Of a stretch of 64,000 nucleotides of DNA, positions 1,758 through 37,495 are shown piece after piece (positions within the stretch are counted from its first letter, which is position 1; each line of letters begins with the position of its first letter). Under the pieces are notes generated by a model, which worked only from the letters and a program-made list of their open reading frames with translations, ran no database searches and was not told the DNA's origin. This DNA comes from Candidatus Staskawiczbacteria bacterium (GTDB lineage Bacteria; Patescibacteriota; Minisyncoccia; Minisyncoccales; Staskawiczbacteraceae): contig CAIMWV010000015.1 in NCBI GenBank assembly GCA_903845295.1, forward strand, positions 6,354-70,353, written 5' to 3'. Both the position numbers and the translations under genes were made by a program.

Positions 1758-3605
1758 ATGAACCCATTACTTAAAAATTTTATATTTGTCATTTTAATTC
1801 TTCTTGTTGTCGGAGGGATTTTTAGCTTGCTTTATTTCCCGACTTCAACCCCGAATGAAATATCTGCCACGCAATTAATTTCTGATATAAACAATAATAA
1901 AGTCAAAAAAATTACCGTCTCGGGAGATATATTGAACATTGTTTACACTGATAATAAAACCGCGATTTCAATGAAAGAATCCGGCACAGGATTAACGGAC
2001 TTATTGATAAACTTGGGGGTCAACAAAGACAGCCTTCAAAAAGTTGAAATTTCAGAACAGCCGGCCCAGCAGGATTTATGGTCCTGGCTGACCCCGCTTT
2101 TAGTCTTCGGCATTTTGCCCCTAATTGTGTTTGGATTTTTCTTCTGGACAATGATAAGGCAGGCAAAATCCGGCGCAGTTCAGGTATTTGATTTTACAAA
2201 AGCCAAAGCCCGCCTTTTCGGAGCCGAAGGCCATGGAAAAGAAAAAATAACCTTTAAAGATGTGGCCGGATTAAAAGAGGCAAAGGAAGAGCTGGTTGAA
2301 ATTGTTGACTTTCTGAAGTTTCCTAAAAAATATCTGGCAATGGGAGCCAAAATCCCAAGGGGAGTTTTGCTTGTAGGAGCAGCCGGAGTCGGAAAAACCT
2401 TATTGGCAAGAGCTGTTGCCGGCGAAGCCAATGTGCCGTTTTTATCAGTTTCCGGATCAGAGTTTGTGGAAATGTTTGTTGGCGTAGGGTCCGCCCGCGT
2501 CAGGGATTTATTTGCAACAGCAAAAAAATCTGCCCCATCGATAATCTTTATTGATGAATTGGATGCAATCGGGCGCCACAGAGGAGCCGGCATTGGCGGA
2601 GGGCACGATGAAAGAGAACAGACGTTAAACCAGATTTTAGTTGAAATGGACGGATTTGAGAAAGAAACGGGAGTTATAATTTTAGCCGCCACAAACAGGC
2701 CGGATATTTTAGACCCTGCTCTTTTAAGGCCCGGAAGATTCGACAGAAAAATCGTTTTAGATCCGCCGGATGTCCATGACAGAGAGGAAATTCTTAAAAT
2801 CCATTCAAAAGGAAAACCATTGGGAAAAGATGTTGATTTCAAAGAAACTGCCGAGAGAACTCCCGGATTTACCGGAGCTGACCTGGCCAATGTTGCCAAC
2901 GAAGCCGCTTTATTGGCTGCCAGACAAAATAAAACCGTTGTTGACCAGAAAGAATTTTTAGAGGCAATTGAAAAAGTTTTGTTGGGGCCTGAGAGAAAAT
3001 CCCATATTTTATCCAAAAAAGAAAAGGAAATAGCAGCATATCACGAAGCAGGACACGCCTTGGTTTCCACATTTATGCCGGATACAGAACCTGTAAGAAA
3101 AATATCGATCATTGCCAGAGGAATGGCAGCAGGATATACATTGCAAGTTCCATCAGAAGAAAGGAAAATGAAAACAAAAACCGGTTTTATGTCAGAAATT
3201 GCCACCCTGCTTGGAGGTTACTGTGCTGAAAAAATAAAGTTCGGCGAAATGACAACCGGAGCTTCAAATGATTTAAGCAGGGCTTCGGAAATGGCAAGGA
3301 AATTAGTCAAAGAATACGGAATGTCGTCTTTGGGCCCGATTTCTTTTGGCGAAAAAGAAGAGCTGGTATTTTTGGGAAAAGAAATTTCTGAACAAAGAAA
3401 TTATTCTGAAAAAGTTGCAGAAAGAATCGATGAAGAAGTTGACGTAATTATAAAAGGAGCGCAGAAACAAGCAGAGATAGTTTTATTAAAACACAAAAAT
3501 TTATTAGACAAGGTGGGAAAAGATTTGATTGAAAAAGAAACCATTGAAAAAGAAGAATTTGAAAGAATAATCGGTGTCCATAAAAATAACAGCAAAAAAT
3601 CATAA
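1758..3605 (+). CDS. ftsH: ATP-dependent zinc metalloprotease FtsH
   Basis: 615 aa. N-terminal TM helices, AAA Walker A GAAGVGKT, Walker B IIFIDELD, zinc motif HEAGHA. Confidence 0.95.
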   Translation: MNPLLKNFIFVILILLVVGGIFSLLYFPTSTPNEISATQLISDINNNKVKKITVSGDILNIVYTDNKTAISMKESGTGLTDLLINLGVNKDSLQKVEISEQPAQQDLWSWLTPLLVFGILPLIVFGFFFWTMIRQAKSGAVQVFDFTKAKARLFGAEGHGKEKITFKDVAGLKEAKEELVEIVDFLKFPKKYLAMGAKIPRGVLLVGAAGVGKTLLARAVAGEANVPFLSVSGSEFVEMFVGVGSARVRDLFATAKKSAPSIIFIDELDAIGRHRGAGIGGGHDEREQTLNQILVEMDGFEKETGVIILAATNRPDILDPALLRPGRFDRKIVLDPPDVHDREEILKIHSKGKPLGKDVDFKETAERTPGFTGADLANVANEAALLAARQNKTVVDQKEFLEAIEKVLLGPERKSHILSKKEKEIAAYHEAGHALVSTFMPDTEPVRKISIIARGMAAGYTLQVPSEERKMKTKTGFMSEIATLLGGYCAEKIKFGEMTTGASNDLSRASEMARKLVKEYGMSSLGPISFGEKEELVFLGKEISEQRNYSEKVAERIDEEVDVIIKGAQKQAEIVLLKHKNLLDKVGKDLIEKETIEKEEFERIIGVHKNNSKKS

Positions 3606-3622
3606 AGGGATTCCCCCTTTAT

Positions 3623-3696
3623 GGGCCTGTAGCTCAGCTGGTTAGAGCACGGCTCTTATAAAGCCGGGGTCGATGGTTCGAGTCCATCCAGGCCCA
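3623..3696 (+). tRNA. tRNA-Ile (anticodon TAT)
   Basis: Manual cloverleaf: gggcctg/caggccc acceptor, anticodon arm cggct-cttataa-agccg, T arm gatgg-ttcgagt-ccatc. 74 nt, no encoded CCA. Confidence 0.85.
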
Positions 3697-3723
3697 CAAA
3701 ATTGAAAAAATTAGTAAAAATAA

Positions 3724-3796
3724 GGGCGCTTAGCTCAGTTGGTAGAGCATTTACTTGACGTGTAAAGGGTCATAGGTTCGAGTCCTATAGCGCCCA
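3724..3796 (+). tRNA. tRNA-Val (anticodon GAC)
   Basis: Acceptor gggcgct/agcgccc, anticodon arm tttac-ttgacgt-gtaaa, T arm atagg-ttcgagt-cctat. Confidence 0.9.
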
Positions 3797-3892
3797 CCGG
3801 GAATTTAAAAATTTGCGAAAACTATGGGTTTGCCCAGTGATAAACACTGGGCGTCGGGTGTTAATCACCCGACGAGTCCTATAGCGCCCACA
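3797..3892 (+). repeat. tRNA-trailing mini-insert ending in a 19-bp duplicate of the tRNA-Val 3' end
   Basis: cgagtcctatagcgcccac occurs at 3779-3797 and again at 3873-3891. Two hairpins (gcccagtg..cactgggc, gtcgggtg..cacccgac) sit just before the second copy, which ends 1 nt before the RluA-family ATG. Confidence 0.6.
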
Positions 3893-4603
3893 ATGAATAT
3901 AAAAATAATTTACGAAGATGATGATGTTCTGGTTGTTGATAAGCCGGCAGGAATTGTAGTTTTCCCGGAGGGTCAAACCAAAGAAAATACCCTGATTGAC
4001 GCTTTAATTGAAAAATATCCCGAGTTAAAAAACACTGGAGAACAGCCAAGATACGGAATTGTGCACAGATTAGATAAAGAGACTTCCGGGGTTTTACTGG
4101 TGGCAAAGAACAATGAAAGCTTGATTTTTCTGCAAAAACAGTTTAAAAATAGAGAGGTAGGAAAGAAATATGTTTGCTTGGTTGAAGGAACGATAAAAGA
4201 GGACAAAGGAGAGATCAAAACTTTAATTGCCAGATCTCCTAAAGACGGGAGGAAACAAAAAGCTTACTCAGAAAATGGACCTCACCCAAAATCAGCCAGG
4301 GAGGCTATAACAGAATATGAGGTTTTAGAAAGATTTAAAGATTATACACTATTAGAAGTTGAGATTAAAACAGGCAGACGCCACCAAATACGGTGTCATT
4401 TTTCTTATTTACATCATCCGATTGCAGGAGATAAATTATACAGTTTCAAAAATTCAAAGATTCCAAAAGGCCTGATGAGGCAATTCCTGCACTCGGCATA
4501 TTTAAAAATCCAATTGCCAAGTGGAGAAATTAAAGAATTTAAATCAGAGCTGCCGGAAGAATTAAACAACGTATTAAAAAATTTACAGCCGGGCGAACAA
4601 TAA
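3893..4603 (+). CDS. RluA-family 23S rRNA/tRNA pseudouridine synthase (RluD-like)
   Basis: Track ORF 3824..4603 trimmed to MNIKIIYEDDDVLVVDKPAG. Catalytic motif HRLDKETSGVLLVAK. Confidence 0.85.
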   Translation: MNIKIIYEDDDVLVVDKPAGIVVFPEGQTKENTLIDALIEKYPELKNTGEQPRYGIVHRLDKETSGVLLVAKNNESLIFLQKQFKNREVGKKYVCLVEGTIKEDKGEIKTLIARSPKDGRKQKAYSENGPHPKSAREAITEYEVLERFKDYTLLEVEIKTGRRHQIRCHFSYLHHPIAGDKLYSFKNSKIPKGLMRQFLHSAYLKIQLPSGEIKEFKSELPEELNNVLKNLQPGEQ

Positions 4604-4692
4604 TGAATTCGGCGTAAATGAGGCATTAATGTATTCGATATATCAGATGGCCTCATTTCCGAAGTAGTCTTATTCGCTTCGCTCACAAGACC
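4592..4692 (+). promoter_or_regulatory. Two-hairpin leader RNA motif, copy A (abuts rplS ATG)
   Basis: Stem cgtaaatgaggc/gcctcatttccg around a conserved loop aatgtattcgatatatca, then hairpin gtcttat..acaagac, then c-ATG. Homologous to copies at 17996-18096, 28149-28251 and 55112-55201. Confidence 0.6.
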
Positions 4693-5127
4693 ATGATAAC
4701 ATTATTAGAAAAATTCAATAAAGACCAATTAAAAGATTTGCCGGAATTAAGGCCTGGCGATACAATTAAAGTATACCAGAAAATAAAAGAAGGAGATAAA
4801 GAAAGAATCCAGATTTTTGAAGGGTTAATTATTGCTAAAAAGCACGGTAAAGGCATTCCGGCCACAATAACCGTAAGGAAAGTTGTTGATGGAATTGGAG
4901 TTGAAAGGGTTTTCCCCATTCATTCCCCCTCTTTAAGCAAAATAGAGGTTGTAAGGCACGGAAAAGTCAGGAGATCAAAACTTTATTACTTAAGGACAGC
5001 TAAAGGACAAAGAGCCAAGCTGAAGAAAAAAGATTTTGCCGTAGCCATTGCCGAAGAACCAGTTACAGAATCGACAGCTCCAGAAAGCCCAACCGAGACC
5101 AAAACATCTGAAAAAAAGTCTGCATAA
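4693..5127 (+). CDS. rplS: 50S ribosomal protein L19
   Basis: 144 aa. [29 protein letters not shown]...[19 protein letters not shown] is typical L19. Acidic/Thr-rich C-terminal extension. Confidence 0.95.
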
Positions 5128-5142
5128 TAGGGATCTATATGA

Positions 5143-5227
5143 GCGGACGTGGCGAAATTGGCAGACGCACTACCTTGAGGTGGTAGCGCCGCAAGGCATG
5201 CAGGTTCGACTCCTGTCGTCCGCACCA
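5143..5227 (+). tRNA. tRNA-Leu (anticodon GAG), CCA encoded
   Basis: Acceptor gcggacg/cgtccgc, anticodon arm ctacc-ttgaggt-ggtag, long variable arm, T arm gcagg-ttcgact-cctgt. Confidence 0.9.
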
Positions 5228-5231
5228 CAAA

Positions 5232-5418
5232 GGGCGCTTAGCTCAGTTGGTAGAGCACTTCATTTATTCACCCCGTTAAATTTTGGACGATTAGCTCAGT
5301 TGGCTAGAGCGTCTCACTTACACTGAGAAGGTCGCAGGTTCGAGTCCTGCATCGTCCACCAAAAAATATTTAACGGGGCAAGCTGAAGGGGTCATAGGTT
5401 CGAGTCCTATAGCGCCCA
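5232..5418 (+). tRNA. Interrupted tRNA (identity unclear) whose anticodon region carries a 114-121 nt insert containing tRNA-Val(TAC)
   Basis: The 5' half gggcgcttagctcagttggtagagcacttca (5232-5262) and 3' half tgaaggggtcataggttcgagtcctatagcgccca (5384-5418) form a complete acceptor, D, anticodon-stem (cttca/tgaag) and T-arm set. Confidence 0.5.
5285..5361 (+). tRNA. tRNA-Val (anticodon TAC), CCA encoded, nested inside the interrupted tRNA
   Basis: Acceptor ggacgat/atcgtcc, anticodon arm tctca-cttacac-tgaga, T arm gcagg-ttcgagt-cctgc. Confidence 0.9.
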
Positions 5419-5564
5419 CATTATTAATTTTAAGACGCCGAAGGTGTTTTAAAATTAATAAATAATAGGTTCTATGTGGCGAGAACCTATTCCCCGAATT
5501 GTCCCGAGCCAGCAGGCGAGGGAGCAATGCCTTCGGGCAACTCTTCGAGTCCTATAGCGCCCAC
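5419..5564 (+). repeat. tRNA-trailing mini-insert ending in a 21-bp duplicate of the preceding tRNA 3' end
   Basis: ttcgagtcctatagcgcccac occurs at 5399-5419 and 5544-5564. Internal hairpins are present. The 20-nt motif gcaatgccttcgggcaactc (5524-5543) is identical to 14872-14891. Confidence 0.55.
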
Positions 5565-5574
5565 CAAATTTAAT

Positions 5575-5649
5575 GCCGGAGTAGCTCAGTGGTAGAGCAC
5601 TGCTCTGAAAAAGCAGTGGTCGAAGGTCCGATTCCTTTCTCCGGCACCA
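5575..5649 (+). tRNA. tRNA-Phe (anticodon GAA), CCA encoded
   Basis: Acceptor gccggag/ctccggc, anticodon arm ctgct-ctgaaaa-agcag. The T loop reads tccgatt, which is non-canonical. Confidence 0.85.
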
Positions 5650-5653
5650 GGGT

Positions 5654-5725
5654 GCGGGTGTCGTATAGTGGCTATTATGCAACCTTGCCAAGGTTGAGAC
5701 GGCAGTTCGATTCTGCTCACCCGCT
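5654..5725 (+). tRNA. tRNA-Gly (anticodon GCC)
   Basis: Acceptor gcgggtg/cacccgc, anticodon arm caacc-ttgccaa-ggttg, T arm ggcag-ttcgatt-ctgct. The D stem is weak. Confidence 0.8.
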
Positions 5726-5740
5726 CACCGTAGTTTACAA

Positions 5741-5770
5741 AAAACCACCTTTTAATTGAGGTGGTTTTTT
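5741..5770 (+). terminator. Rho-independent terminator after the tRNA cluster
   Basis: aaaaccacct...aggtggtttttt stem-loop with T run. Confidence 0.6.
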
Positions 5771-5803
5771 GGTAGGATAAGATAATAATTAACAATAAAA
5801 AAT

Positions 5804-6145
5804 ATGGAATTAAAATCAGGGACTATAAAACATTTACAGGAGTATGTCGACGCTAAATTAAAGGAGCGAGGATTTGCTGACGAAACATTACATGAGCGTT
5901 TGTTGCTATTAACTGAAGAACTGGGCGAGTTGGTTAATGCTTGCCGCAAAATCTCCGGCATGAATGTCGATAAAAATAGAGACATAACTAATGAGGCGGG
6001 TGAGGAAATTGCCGATATGATAAATTTAGTTTTTGCCGTTGGTATAGAATTGGGTTTGGATATTGAAAAAGAATTCTTAGAAAAGAATGCCAAAGTAGAC
6101 AAACGCATTTACAAAAGGAGTACCAAAAAAATAAAGGGCGGATAG
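5804..6145 (+). CDS. MazG-like nucleotide pyrophosphohydrolase domain protein
   Basis: 113 aa. LLLLTEELGELVNACRK and EEIADMINLVFAVGIELGLD match the small all-alpha MazG/NTP-PPase pattern. Confidence 0.65.
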   Translation: MELKSGTIKHLQEYVDAKLKERGFADETLHERLLLLTEELGELVNACRKISGMNVDKNRDITNEAGEEIADMINLVFAVGIELGLDIEKEFLEKNAKVDKRIYKRSTKKIKGG

Positions 6146-6367
6146 TTCAGTTGATAGAGCACTTCATTATTGAGCCGCAGGGTAGGGCAATTTAGTTGAT
6201 TTCCGCCCTCTCCACCGACAACCTCCGTATAAAGAACCCTTTATTCTCTATAAAATAGGTTTTAACATCATCCACTATCCCGCTCCAATATAAAAAAAGG
6301 TGCATAAACGCCTCTTTTTTGTTAAAATCACACTCTTGACAGCTGATGCTATTTTGTGTTGTAACTA

Positions 6368-6396
6368 TTGACAAGCCCCCTTTTATATGCTAATAT
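6368..6396 (+). promoter_or_regulatory. Promoter of the 3D-domain gene
   Basis: TTGACA, 17 nt, TAATAT, 32 nt upstream of ATG 6428. Confidence 0.5.
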
Positions 6397-6427
6397 ATAT
6401 GTATACTCCTTTGGGAGTTTTTTAATT

Positions 6428-11808: not shown

Positions 11809-12032
11809 AAAATAATCCCGACTTCCTGATAGAAATCGTTTGACTCTATTAACGTTAAATCTATTTATTATTTATCCATTTTACCATCAGCAAGCACCCT
11901 TGTCCATAGACAGACACCATTTTTATCCCCAGCTATTCCCCATATAAAAAGAGTAAGAATCTGCCCGAAACATGCGCTTTTAGGCCGAAAAACCGCCCTT
12001 TACAGCGATTTTTTGCCGATTCGGTGGTTTGT

Positions 12033-12116
12033 GTGCCCCTAGAACCTCCATTTAAGGTTTAGGAAACCTTCGCCCTATCTTCCCCCCCCACACCAATGCG
12101 CCCTCGGGAGGAATCT
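12033..12116. pseudogene. Rearranged fragments of tRNA-Arg(CCT)
   Basis: gaacctccatttaaggtttaggaaacct.cg.cctatc and gccctcgggaggaatc duplicate parts of the intact gene at 12217-12288 but in permuted order. ccccacaccaatgc is the inverted copy of gcattggtgtgggg at 12287-12300. Confidence 0.5.
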
Positions 12117-14796: not shown

Positions 14797-14914
14797 CAAA
14801 GCCTGGATTTAAATACAAAGCAATTCGAGGGAGGATGAGAACCTCCACCCCCGGATTGCGAGCGAAGCGAGGCAATGCCTTCGGGCAACTCGGTTCGATT
14901 CCTCCCGAAGGCAC
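14797..14914 (+). repeat. tRNA-trailing mini-insert ending in a 23-bp (1 mismatch) duplicate of the tRNA-Arg(TCT) 3' end
   Basis: ggttcgattcctcccgagggcac at 14775-14797 versus ggttcgattcctcccgaaggcac at 14892-14914. The second copy is preceded by gcaatgccttcgggcaactc (14872-14891), identical to 5524-5543. Confidence 0.55.
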
Positions 14915-15647: not shown

Positions 15648-16382
15648 ATGGCGACACTTATTATACTACTTTCGATAGCAACATTTGTTTCCACTCTTCT
15701 GGGCGGACTCTTTGCCGTTAAATTTAAAAATAAACTCCACTATATCATGGCTTTTGCCTCAGGAGTTTTGCTTGGAGTTGTAGCATTTGATATTTTCCCG
15801 GAAATTATTGAACAGGTTAAAACTTATAACTTTAATTCTGTTGAAGCTATGATTGCTTTAGTCTTGGGCTTTTTAATTTTCCACATATTAGAAAAAAGCA
15901 TTTTAATACAGCATTGCCATGAAGAGGAATGTGCTGCCCATCACAAACATCCGCATATAGGAATTGCCTCTGCTTTGGCTTTAGCCGGCCACAGTTTTAT
16001 GGACGGAGTCGGTATCGGACTCGGTTTTCAGGTCAGTCCTGTCGTAGGATTATTGGTTGCGGTTGCTGTTATTTCCCACGATTTTACAGATGGTATGAAC
16101 ACGGTGACATTGATGCTCAACAATAAAAATACTGACAGAAATTCCAAAATATTTCTGCTTTTAGATTCTGTAACGCCTGTTTTGGGAGCTGCATCAACTT
16201 TATTTTTTAAAGTTTCCCCTCATTTTTTGGTTTTATATTTGGGATTCTTCGCAGGATTCTTGCTTTACATCGGAGCATCGGACATTTTGCCGGAAGCCCA
16301 TTCGCAGCACAGCTCTTATAAATTAATGGGCCTGACAATTCTAGGCACATTATTCATTTTTATCATCACCCGTTTTATTTAA
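15648..16382 (+). CDS. ZIP-family divalent metal transporter (ZupT-like)
   Basis: 244 aa, about 7-8 TM helices, His-rich loop HCHEEECAAHHKHPH, motif HSFMDGVGIG...SHDFTDG. TATAAT at 15632-15637 lies 10 nt before the ATG. Confidence 0.85.
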   Translation: MATLIILLSIATFVSTLLGGLFAVKFKNKLHYIMAFASGVLLGVVAFDIFPEIIEQVKTYNFNSVEAMIALVLGFLIFHILEKSILIQHCHEEECAAHHKHPHIGIASALALAGHSFMDGVGIGLGFQVSPVVGLLVAVAVISHDFTDGMNTVTLMLNNKNTDRNSKIFLLLDSVTPVLGAASTLFFKVSPHFLVLYLGFFAGFLLYIGASDILPEAHSQHSSYKLMGLTILGTLFIFIITRFI

Positions 16383-17995: not shown

Positions 17996-18096
17996 GGTCT
18001 TGTGAGCGAGGCGAACAAGATTGCTTCGGAAATTAGACCCTGATATATCTTATACATTGTGGGTCTAATTTACGCTGAACACCTTACGCTTCGCTG
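17996..18096 (-). promoter_or_regulatory. Two-hairpin leader RNA motif, copy C (abuts rny GTG)
   Basis: Sense strand: cgtaaattagaccc-acaatgtataagatatatca-gggtctaatttccg, then gtcttgt-tcgcctcgctc-acaagac, then c-GTG. Confidence 0.6.
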
Positions 18097-28148: not shown

Positions 28149-28251
28149 GGTCTTGTGAGCGAGGCGAACAAGACTACTTCGGAAATGAGGCCATCTGATA
28201 TATCGAATACATTAGTGCCTCATTTACGCTGAACTCATTATTCGCTCACCG
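28149..28251 (-). promoter_or_regulatory. Two-hairpin leader RNA motif, copy B (abuts nusA ATG)
   Basis: Sense strand: cgtaaatgaggc-actaatgtattcgatatatcagatg-gcctcatttccg, then gtcttgt-tcgcctcgctc-acaagac, then c-ATG. Confidence 0.6.
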
Positions 28252-37081: not shown

Positions 37082-37154
37082 GCCCTCATAGCTCAGCTGG
37101 TAGAGCAGTTGCCTCTTAAGCAATTGGTCACAGGTTCGAATCCTGTTGAGGGCA
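37082..37154 (+). tRNA. tRNA-Lys (anticodon CTT)
   Basis: Acceptor gccctca/tgagggc, anticodon arm gttgc-ctcttaa-gcaat, T arm acagg-ttcgaat-cctgt. Confidence 0.9.
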
Positions 37155-37155
37155 C

Positions 37156-37428
37156 ATGTTCTATGTTTATTTTTTATTTTTAAATAACCAAAATATTTAT
37201 AAAGGATTTACTGCCGATTTAGAAAGAAAAATCGAATAACACAAAACAGGAAGGGTTGCATCAACAAAAAATAAAAATCCGACGCTTATCCACTATGAAG
37301 CCTATCTGCTAAAAACAGATGCGGAAAGGCGCGAGAGATTTCTCAAAACTACTGAGGGCAGAAGATTGCTTAAACAACAATTAAAAGATTTACTAAATAA
37401 ATTAGGTTCGTCAGGTCATTCGACCTGA
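37156..37428 (+). pseudogene. GIY-YIG nuclease gene with in-frame TAA (37237-37239), inserted at the tRNA-Lys 3' end
   Basis: MFYVYFLFLNNQNIYKGFTADLERKIE*HKTGRVASTKNKNPTLIHYEAYLLKTDAERRERFLKTTEGRRLL... parallels the intact copy at 34152..34391. The stop replaces the conserved Glu (GAA to TAA). Confidence 0.7.
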
Positions 37429-37466
37429 CGCCCAGTCGGATGACTGGGCGAATCCTGTTGAGGGCA

Positions 37467-37495
37467 CCCTTCGACTCGCTTAGCTCGCTCAGGGC
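37467..37495. repeat. G+C-rich mini-element copy (intergenic)
   Basis: cccttcgactcgcttagctcgctcagggc. Confidence 0.5.

Follow-up and report, generated by a model that had tools for sequence, protein, structure and literature searches.

In a 64,000-nucleotide (nt) stretch of DNA from Candidatus Staskawiczbacteria bacterium (contig CAIMWV010000015.1, positions 6,354 to 70,353 of the forward strand; hereafter the window, 39.6% G+C with 18 tRNA genes), the 3′ end of a tRNA-Val(GAC) gene is present twice, once within the tRNA and once immediately ahead of the start codon of a gene for an RluA-family pseudouridine synthase. An initial annotation of the sequence proposed that the second copy is a tRNA-like 3′ end, cleavage of which would release a leaderless mRNA in the manner of mitochondrial tRNA punctuation. 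The question raised by the locus is therefore whether the second copy is a processing signal or has some other origin. The reading favored here, to which we assign a probability of roughly 0.7, is that the segment 3798–3891 was left by a mobile element that invaded the tRNA-Val(GAC) gene and is not a purpose-built tRNA mimic. The features of the locus are as follows.

3623–3697, + strand: tRNA-Ile(TAT) (ARAGORN; Rfam, 72.9 bits), the first gene here in the conserved order FtsH, tRNA-Ile, tRNA-Val, RluA
3724–3798, + strand: intact, presumably functional tRNA-Val(GAC) (ARAGORN; Rfam, 70.7 bits), with discriminator A3796 and the CCA not encoded
3772–3797, + strand: proximal repeat copy, the T-arm and acceptor 3′ strand of the working tRNA-Val (alignment)
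3798–3823, + strand: locus-unique 26-nt spacer
3824–3831, + strand: displaced T-stem 5′ strand and start of the T-loop, ATGGGTTT (ATAGGTTC in tRNA-Val), containing the in-frame ATG 3824
3832–3872, + strand: 41-nt double-hairpin module of the alpha subtype, at TTC^GA of the displaced T-loop (covariance model R1, 59.3 bits)
3832–3852, 3853 and 3854–3872, + strand: parts of the alpha module, namely hairpin 1, G3853 and hairpin 2
3873–3891, + strand: displaced T-loop 3′ part, T-stem 3′ strand, acceptor 3′ strand, discriminator and a C (empty junctions in relatives)
3893–4603, + strand: RluA-family pseudouridine synthase (PF00849; relatives align from residue 1)

The 19-mer CGAGTCCTATAGCGCCCAC forms both the tRNA-Val end at 3779–3797 and the segment at 3873–3891, as first described, against 0.00 occurrences expected from shuffles of the window; two additional exact copies, at 5401–5419 and 5546–5564, had been overlooked. 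In the distal copy, discriminator A3890 and C3891 are followed by A3892 and then by the RluA ATG at 3893–3895, which agrees with the earlier placement of the duplicate end at 3891 and the start codon at 3893, and the gene product matches PF00849 with an E-value of 1.8e-34. The two hairpins reported within a degenerate T arm were also found, and the GCCCAGT...ACTGGGC stem that one of them was said to share with an element at tRNA-Lys is present at only two sites in the window (3832 and 37430–37449; none expected). When the hairpins are excised, ATGGGTTT/CGAGTCC.. aligns with ATAGGTTC/GAGTCC.., and the repeat extends to the whole T-arm plus the acceptor 3′ strand, with 25 identities, one mismatch and one gap in 27 columns; upstream of this T-arm repeat, no further alignment between the distal and proximal copies was found. 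On this alignment the T-arm and acceptor 3′ strand are shown to be present twice, the proximal copy completing the working tRNA and the distal copy still joined to RluA. The intact tRNA-Val (70.7 bits) lies 33 nt upstream of the module, which does not interrupt the sole functional copy.

Comparison with related loci, designated here by L numbers, places the distal copy at an old junction. By its RluA relatives, which reach 85% protein identity, the window belongs to Candidatus Staskawiczbacteria (Patescibacteria). The order FtsH, tRNA-Ile(TAT), tRNA-Val(GAC), RluA is kept in many relatives, and in 16 related loci an intact tRNA stands 1–10 nt before the RluA ATG without any duplicate (tRNA-Val(GAC) in 15, tRNA-Ile in L006). 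The distance is 1–3 nt in nine of the 16 and reaches up to 10 nt in L012, L014, L015 and L034. A ..GCCCAC-ATG junction is found in L002, L003, L004, L005 and L035, a CACC-ATG junction in L013 and L006 (the adjacent tRNA in L006 being tRNA-Ile), and a CACA-ATG junction identical to that of the distal copy here in L008 and L031. Because relatives carry an intact tRNA at RluA with no duplicate, CAC-A-ATG of the distal copy corresponds to the ancestral tRNA/RluA junction. These loci show that tRNA-Val ancestrally abutted the RluA start codon and the distal copy retains that old junction; on the same comparison the adjacency is older than the duplication, and the additional 94 nt between tRNA-Val and RluA are a derived insertion or duplication. 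The anticodon TAT of the tRNA-Ile at 3623–3697, which is conserved beside tRNA-Val across the clade, is itself an unusual bacterial way to read AUA.

The spacer had been described as lacking an open reading frame (ORF). This holds for the 75-nt interval in that no free-standing ORF is present, but ATG 3824, inside the displaced T-stem, is in frame with RluA. Public gene calls use ATG 3824, which yields a 259-amino acid (aa) product with 23 additional residues (MGLPSDKHWASGVNHPTSPIAPT) whose codons lie in the module and the displaced tRNA end. The 259-aa call is present on two contigs, the exact 236-aa RluA is not on public record, and the genome is present in samples ERZ1426843 and ERZ1426835. 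Since RluA relatives, at protein identities of up to 85%, begin at the equivalent of 3893, the N-terminal extension is probably a spurious annotation artefact.

The hairpins within the displaced T-loop belong to a family. A metagenome scan with a pattern comprising hairpin 1 and the start of hairpin 2 returned 39 stretches, ∼12 of which are chance matches in G+C-rich coding DNA, and a relaxed pattern applied to the metagenome stretches, the genome loci and the cassette loci described below gave 38 real instances with 25 distinct sequences. The alpha subtype, which includes 3832–3872, is 41 nt long and reads GCCCAGTG-ATWAA-CACTGGGC-G-TCGGGTG-TTYAT-CACCCGA; the beta subtype is 39 nt long and reads GCCCAGTC-ATYC-GACTGGGC-G-TC(G/A)GGT(C/T)-GNAT-(G/A)ACC(C/T)GA. 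In the module stems 99.7% of cells pair, with compensatory changes: pair 25:39 is G:C in 19 sequences and A:U in five, pair 23:41 covaries too, and the innermost pair is C:G, G:C or T:A in both hairpin 1 (15, 8 and 1 sequences, respectively) and hairpin 2 (12, 7 and 4). Searched against 796 kb of related genome loci, covariance model R1 detected only three strong module copies, of which two are in the window. No Rfam family matched the module-bearing element, either at gathering thresholds across the window or at E-value thresholds across 3500–6400 and three related loci.

The left flank of the module ends in TC in 36 of the 38 instances and the right flank begins with CGA in 34, and the site of the module is therefore TTC^GA of the T-loop (positions 56/57), where C or CG is possibly duplicated upon insertion. 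Both orientations relative to the tRNA were found, which fits the palindromic TCGA target. A tRNA 3′ fragment is present at one module flank in 33 instances, and 26 have an intact tRNA 10–255 nt upstream, as read along the tRNA. The tRNAs beside modules, of at least 12 species, are those for Val (GAC, TAC and CAC), Arg (GCG and CCT), Ser (CGA), Ala (TGC), Ile (TAT), Glu (CTC and TTC), Gln (CTG) and Lys (CTT), with Leu(TAG) as an additional host in the cassette loci and Leu(GAG) beside a diverged module variant in L039. Tandem arrays of dead end, module and spacer are present in L081, L086 and L101, and in L103 a dead tRNA-Gln copy is truncated at the module. The tRNA-Val(GAC) site varies among relatives: in L094 and L102 the displaced T-loop carries an alpha module, with spacers unlike the one here, in L001 a different insert of 70 nt is present, and in L002 and others the site is empty. 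The displaced-end architecture, the TTC^GA position and the recurrence at many tRNAs are shown by these alignments, in which the module is seen in numerous Patescibacteria and from a large number of metagenomes. Displaced and working tRNA ends are identical in this window and in L117 and differ in L066, L079, L082 and L112, and the diverged ends fit replacement by a foreign allele. In L112 both acceptor-stem strands of the working tRNA are unlike what the displaced end implies, so the whole tRNA appears to have been replaced.

A sister element that carries an ORF is present elsewhere in the window, downstream of tRNA-Lys.

37082–37155, + strand: tRNA-Lys(CTT), host of the ORF-bearing sister element (ARAGORN; Rfam)
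37156–37428, + strand: GIY-YIG (UPF0213-type) pseudogene of 90 codons (PF01541; TAA at 37237–37239)
37411–37449, − strand: double-hairpin module of the beta subtype, inverted, which supplies the last GIY-YIG codons and the stop (R1, 61.5 bits)
37449–37467, + strand: displaced tRNA-Lys 3′ end, identical to 37137–37155 (repeat family D20)

The GIY-YIG ATG at 37156 lies 1 nt past the tRNA-Lys discriminator and the ATG of a pilin-like gene (36615) lies 9 nt past that of tRNA-Arg(TCG); measured in this way, both distances are as the initial annotation gave them. The TAA at 37237–37239 replaces a glutamate codon of homologues (E; GAA in L066). The protein belongs to the catalytic domain-only UPF0213 family (Protein Data Bank entries 1ywl and 1zg2, function unknown), and at least 237 homologues were found, many on short contigs. 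ORFs of 78–87% protein identity are present in L066–L072 and L112–L119, which represent seven distinct cassette contexts after tRNA-Arg(GCG) (L066/L067, L068 and L117/L118), tRNA-Arg(CCT) (L112–L116) and tRNA-Leu(TAG) (L069–L072 and L119). In every one of the seven, the cassette ORF begins directly after ..GCAC of the tRNA. In six it ends in a complete module followed by the displaced tRNA 3′ end, and in the seventh (L069–L072; sequence from L070) the hairpins are partly deleted and the ORF runs into the displaced end. A GIY-YIG ORF followed by an alpha module in forward orientation was found in L085. Mirror cases occur at the 5′ side: the order in L034 (3505–3852) is an old tRNA-Val 5′ fragment broken off in the D-loop, hairpins, a GIY-YIG ORF and a complete tRNA-Val, with the stop of the ORF overlapping the start of the tRNA, and upstream of RluA in L008 and L046 an old D-loop-cut 5′ fragment, hairpins and a complete tRNA are likewise present. 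None of the genes called next to the cassettes encodes a recombinase; the one rve-domain gene, in L070, is located ∼1.5 kb upstream.

The module is thus shown to be physically linked to GIY-YIG cassettes. It is present in every cassette and complete in all but one, whereas the ORF accompanies roughly a fifth of the module copies, which is the usual relation of autonomous elements to their short derivatives. Because the same module, inverted, ends the GIY-YIG cassettes after tRNA-Lys, tRNA-Arg and tRNA-Leu, the element at 3798–3891 is, judged by its sequence, an ORF-less member of this tRNA-invading family. No description of T-loop hairpin modules or of tRNA-linked UPF0213 cassettes was found in the literature searched.

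These observations can be accommodated by the following proposal. A nuclease, most likely the cassette GIY-YIG enzyme, would cut tRNA genes in the T-loop, and repair or recombination would then supply a replacement 3′ part and leave the old 3′ part behind; because a replacement is supplied, the essential tRNA would survive. The module would come to occupy the cut site of the old 3′ part, and solo modules such as 3832–3872 would represent ORF-less, non-autonomous or decayed family members. RluA would still be cotranscribed with the tRNAs, its transcript carrying the folded relic as a 5′ leader, except where an alternative acceptor pairing might still permit 3′ processing at A3890.

The closest known systems are the mobile endonuclease ORFs (mORFs) of fungal mitochondria (Allomyces macrogynus atp6; Glomus atp6, atp9, cox2 and nad3), which insert a foreign C-terminal gene part and leave the native part downstream, relatives with an uninterrupted gene being known (PMC3630166). 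A host 5′ part, a replacement 3′ end, an endonuclease ORF and a displaced native 3′ end are common to mORFs and to the tRNA-Lys, tRNA-Arg and tRNA-Leu cassettes, which have exactly this layout. At the tRNA-Val locus, a replacement 3′ end and a displaced native end are found, relatives have an empty site, and an ORF between the copies is absent. Unlike the mORFs, the present family has a bacterial tRNA host, a 90-aa nuclease that consists of the catalytic domain only, and a double hairpin at the junction, and the copy at 3798–3891 is ORF-less; since the host is a tRNA gene, there is no reading frame to preserve. Mitochondrial double-hairpin elements were reportedly described in Allomyces by Paquin, Laforest and Lang in 2000 as short, G+C-rich units of two adjacent stem-loops with many copies and signs of mobility. 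Repetitive hairpin elements of mitochondria, double hairpins included, have also been documented (PMC2800124). The module resembles mitochondrial double hairpins as a short G+C-rich two-stem-loop unit with many copies and signs of mobility, but it differs in its strict TTC^GA T-loop target, its bacterial host and its tie to GIY-YIG cassettes, and the two are not related in sequence.

The T4 SegB protein is a free-standing GIY-YIG homing endonuclease encoded in a tRNA cluster that cuts the tRNA region of a related genome and promotes the inheritance of its own locus (PMC2330249). A GIY-YIG nuclease gene among tRNA genes is likewise present here, but SegB is larger and has neither a tRNA-end duplication nor a hairpin module, and cleavage by the cassette protein is only predicted. 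As in tRNA-targeted integrative elements, the incoming 3′ part keeps the tRNA intact and the displaced part forms a direct repeat from the T-arm; in contrast to those elements, there is no integrase, the insert measures 75–290 nt and not kilobases, and a conserved insert is present in the displaced T-loop. Bacteria of the candidate phyla radiation are known to carry homing endonuclease insertions in rRNA genes (PMC11270868). These belong to the same radiation and are also mobile insertions with homing endonucleases in essential structural RNA genes, but they interrupt the rRNA genes, whereas here duplication keeps the tRNA intact and the nuclease family differs.

Several observations weigh against an invasion by a mobile element. 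No transposase, integrase or nuclease gene was found inside or beside the 3798–3891 element, the window's GIY-YIG gene is itself a pseudogene, and cutting of T-loop DNA by its product is a proposal. The search pattern fixed stem 1 and part of stem 2 for most copies; the invariance of the outer stem columns is therefore by construction, and these columns carry no weight. Among the loci compared, no pair of sites differed by the presence or absence of the module only, and its independent mobility is for this reason deduced from its distribution. Duplication and module insertion may have occurred in either order. Spacers are unique to each locus, and the spacer here gave no significant similarity to GIY-YIG ORFs in alignments; an origin of the spacer from such an ORF was accordingly rejected, and this copy need not descend from an ORF-bearing cassette. 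Finally, the distal 19 nt show 100% identity with the working tRNA, whereas identity is ∼80% for the RluA-like spacer, which was possibly co-duplicated; this difference is a hint of gene conversion, or of selection acting on the distal copy.

The last point bears on tRNA punctuation, for which a pattern does exist across the clade. Distances from tRNA ends to downstream starts, which the initial annotation regarded as informative, were collected for 325 tRNAs in the window and 65 related loci; because these loci were chosen through RluA, the sample is biased. An ATG-started ORF (≥60 aa) begins 1–3 nt past the discriminator at 19 of these tRNAs, equivalent to ∼6 starts per position as compared with ∼1.1 per position at 4–60 nt (64 starts). 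Ten of the 19 are RluA orthologues, and the remainder belong to at least eight other gene families and follow tRNA-Val, tRNA-Ile and tRNA-Ser. GIY-YIG cassettes whose 5′ junction could be read start 1 nt after the discriminator (..GCAC) without exception (10/10). The absence of Shine-Dalgarno (SD) sequences, which had been presumed for this organism, is borne out by SD-like motifs before seven of 56 genes, a frequency at the 10.8% background. A consensus scan of the + strand between tRNA-Val and RluA revealed no σ70-like promoter and no terminator, the nearest promoter-like sites being located at 3529–3587, before tRNA-Ile. A promoter within the element itself was considered and rejected on the same consensus scan, since none was found and a −10-like TATAGC in the T-stem is not conserved among relatives. 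TATAAT-like boxes occur 6–10 nt before the ATGs at 15648, 44135, 46956, 48618 and 49279. Many transcripts of this organism probably have little or no leader. Given the enriched abutment of tRNA and ATG, the background level of SD motifs and the lack of a promoter between tRNA-Val and RluA, cotranscription followed by tRNA 3′ trimming to yield near-leaderless mRNAs is plausible clade-wide. No description of bacterial tRNA punctuation was found in the literature searched. The pattern resembles mitochondrial tRNA punctuation in that coding sequences start 1–3 nt past the tRNA end, with no room for a promoter or SD sequence; it differs in that the organism is a bacterium in which the pattern is known from sequence alone, and in that the element adjacent to RluA is a tRNA fragment.

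That the distal copy is itself a selected tRNA-like punctuation mark, at which a cut by RNase Z or RNase P frees a leaderless RluA mRNA, is nevertheless unlikely. The clade-wide enrichment and conservation of abutting start codons, the background level of SD motifs, the lack of a promoter-like site from tRNA-Val to RluA and the perfect preservation of the distal 19 nt beside a diverged spacer would all be expected of such a mark. The distal element is predicted to fold with the T-stem closing the two hairpins in a three-way junction (ΔG −38.9 kcal/mol, z = −4.65), and when the tRNA and the element are folded together, the distal copy takes the acceptor 5′ strand as its partner in the minimum free energy structure. 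Thermodynamically, this would allow a large alternative precursor with its end at A3890, and residual processing at that position is possible on this model. The distal copy, however, lacks its own acceptor 5′ strand and carries the 41-nt insert in place of a T-loop; the interval 3799–3892 gave no cloverleaf call by ARAGORN and no match to the Rfam tRNA model even at E ≤ 5, and the description of the duplicate as a tRNA-like 3′ end was not upheld. Ancestry fully explains the adjacency to RluA, homologous displaced fragments at other loci lie 6–31 nt from the next ATG and have often diverged from the working tRNA, and the module is found in both orientations and in dead arrays. The punctuation proposal therefore stands as a pattern of the clade and not for this duplicate, whose adjacency is inherited and which came with a mobile insertion. 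The same fold, with its insert inside the T-loop and its neat closure by the old T-stem, might suggest an intron-like sequence in an alternative tRNA-Val 3′ half that is removed from the RNA to give a second isoform. We consider this scarcely credible: most copies are preceded by an intact tRNA or an intact 3′ part, no sole-copy tRNA carrying the module was seen, and the module-bearing copy in L103 has no 3′ end. To our knowledge, no bacterial splicing system acts at such a T-loop site.

Two further explanations concern the origin of the repeat. Direct repeats of the 3′ part of a tRNA from the T-arm are a classic mark of tRNA-targeted integration, and the locus might be the remnant of an integrase island in the tRNA-Val T-loop, bounded by attL/attR direct repeats and later almost wholly deleted; a repeat at tRNA-Leu in L001 reaches into the terminator over at least 55 nt, as might be expected of such an island. 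This origin is very improbable, since the 75-nt spacer contains no integrase gene or fragment and none appears in the ORF lists and gene calls, which covered the window and some related loci; the gene between the repeats, where present, encodes a 90-aa GIY-YIG nuclease; and independent deletions would not place the same 41-nt module, in both orientations, at one and the same T-loop dinucleotide across dozens of contexts that are unrelated. A local accident, by which slippage or unequal crossing-over duplicated ∼53 nt from the T-arm to about codon 9 of RluA and unrelated hairpins arrived later with no mobile system, deserves slightly more weight, but we still regard it as improbable. Spacer 3798–3823 weakly resembles the first ∼30 nt of RluA with the register kept (21 identities, five mismatches and a 3-nt gap in 29 columns), the alignment score being reached by 24 of 5000 shuffles and by 0.65% of window segments; this likeness is what a ∼53-nt duplication extending from the T-arm into RluA might leave, and the tandem arrays show that unequal recombination acts on these units. 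No similarity of spacer to downstream flank was found at the other family loci compared, and a tandem duplication taking in the downstream flank was rejected as a general rule. An accident would also leave unexplained the commonness of redundant T-arm copies in the clade (five in the window), the conserved interruption at the same TTC^GA and the link to GIY-YIG ORFs. Two other candidates were set aside: single-strand transposition of the IS200/IS605 type is unlikely given that both flanks are constrained (TC...CGA) and both orientations occur, and an integron attC-like site is not indicated because GTTCGAA does not match the core GTTRRRY.

In a more far-reaching proposal, which we offer as tentative, UPF0213-type GIY-YIG nucleases and the 41-nt module would together constitute an undescribed class of tRNA gene-homing elements in Patescibacteria that cut the T-loop at TTC^GA, keep the tRNA by duplication or replacement of its 3′ part, and are expressed without promoter or SD sequence as leaderless mRNAs freed by RNase Z. 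Processing of tRNA 3′ ends would then serve as punctuation for many mRNAs of the clade, and the displaced end described here could still serve in this way through the alternative acceptor pairing.

Other displaced and repeated sequences were observed in the window and in related loci. The window contains five displaced tRNA ends or redundant T-arm copies. At 5232–5264, 5285–5361 and 5386–5419 a tRNA-Val(TAC) of foreign type is nested between the two halves of the lineage's tRNA-Val(TAC), which is broken in the anticodon loop; the inner tRNA is bracketed by an 11-bp stem (CCCCGTTAAAT/ATTTAACGGGG). The lineage tRNA-Val(TAC) is intact in L003, L005, L006, L014 and L034, and the same nesting was found for tRNA-Ile(TAT) in L038 and L041. 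A degenerate tRNA-like sequence at 6136–6209 (Rfam tRNA, 17.5 bits, E = 3.9) has a 5′ half that is 89% identical to the tRNA-Val(TAC) 5′ half at 5232–5264 as far as the anticodon loop (exact over GAGCACTTCATT) and then diverges. A second kind of insert, of ∼70 nt, is present in displaced T-arms after the outer tRNA-Val(TAC) (5466–5564) and after tRNA-Arg(TCT) (14827–14914), both copies carrying the identical 20-mer GCAATGCCTTCGGGCAACTC (5524–5543 and 14872–14891); the insert after tRNA-Val(GAC) in L001 is of this kind. On the minus strand, downstream of tRNA-Arg(CCT), there is a displaced 3′ end at 12096–12115 and a partial pseudo-tRNA at 12031–12079 that ends in GGTTC-TAG-GGGCAC, and the TTC-TAG junction recurs in displaced T-loops of relatives.

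A conserved scaffold of ∼100 nt (GGGGTCGGG..CCCGTGTAGGAAAT..TTCAAAAC..GTTTTGAAGGAG..CGAGCGAC) is bounded on one side by a copy of the host T-arm in antisense and on the other by a displaced 3′ end in sense in L001 (three copies), L007, L008 (two), L009 (two), L024 (two), L027 and L028. It comprises two hairpins with seven covarying pairs, and the copy in L028 looks circularly permuted. No Rfam match to the scaffold was obtained in L009, L024 and L028, the loci scanned; a role of the scaffolds as ribozyme or guide RNA was rejected on the lack of a family match and the restriction of covariation to the hairpins. A hairpin-rich repeated leader of ∼85 nt, present at 4604–4692, at 28149–28235 and 17996–18080 on the minus strand, and around 10816 in L007, ends exactly at the start codons of L19, a 470-aa ORF and a GTG-started ORF. 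The copy before L19 (4604–4692), which was scanned, gave no Rfam match at E ≤ 5, and the leader may be another element that defines mRNA 5′ ends. In L009, 7567–7684 matches LOOT RNA (RF03000, 82.8 bits), which is unrelated to the tRNA elements.

An odd repeat upstream of RluA has in this way become a testable system, in which a short element is placed with single-dinucleotide precision in the most conserved loop of tRNA genes. For the UPF0213 GIY-YIG proteins, which are widespread and of unknown function, the association points to a first biological role, and it would provide a bacterial counterpart to the mitochondrial trick by which a gene is invaded while a spare end is brought along. Such a system would account for the displaced tRNA ends, five of which are present in this window, and perhaps for the nested tRNA found there too, as well as for the 23 residues that public gene calls wrongly add to the N terminus of RluA. 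In a lineage free of SD sequences, moreover, the conserved 1–3 nt that separate start codons from the tRNA ends before them make bacterial tRNA punctuation directly testable.

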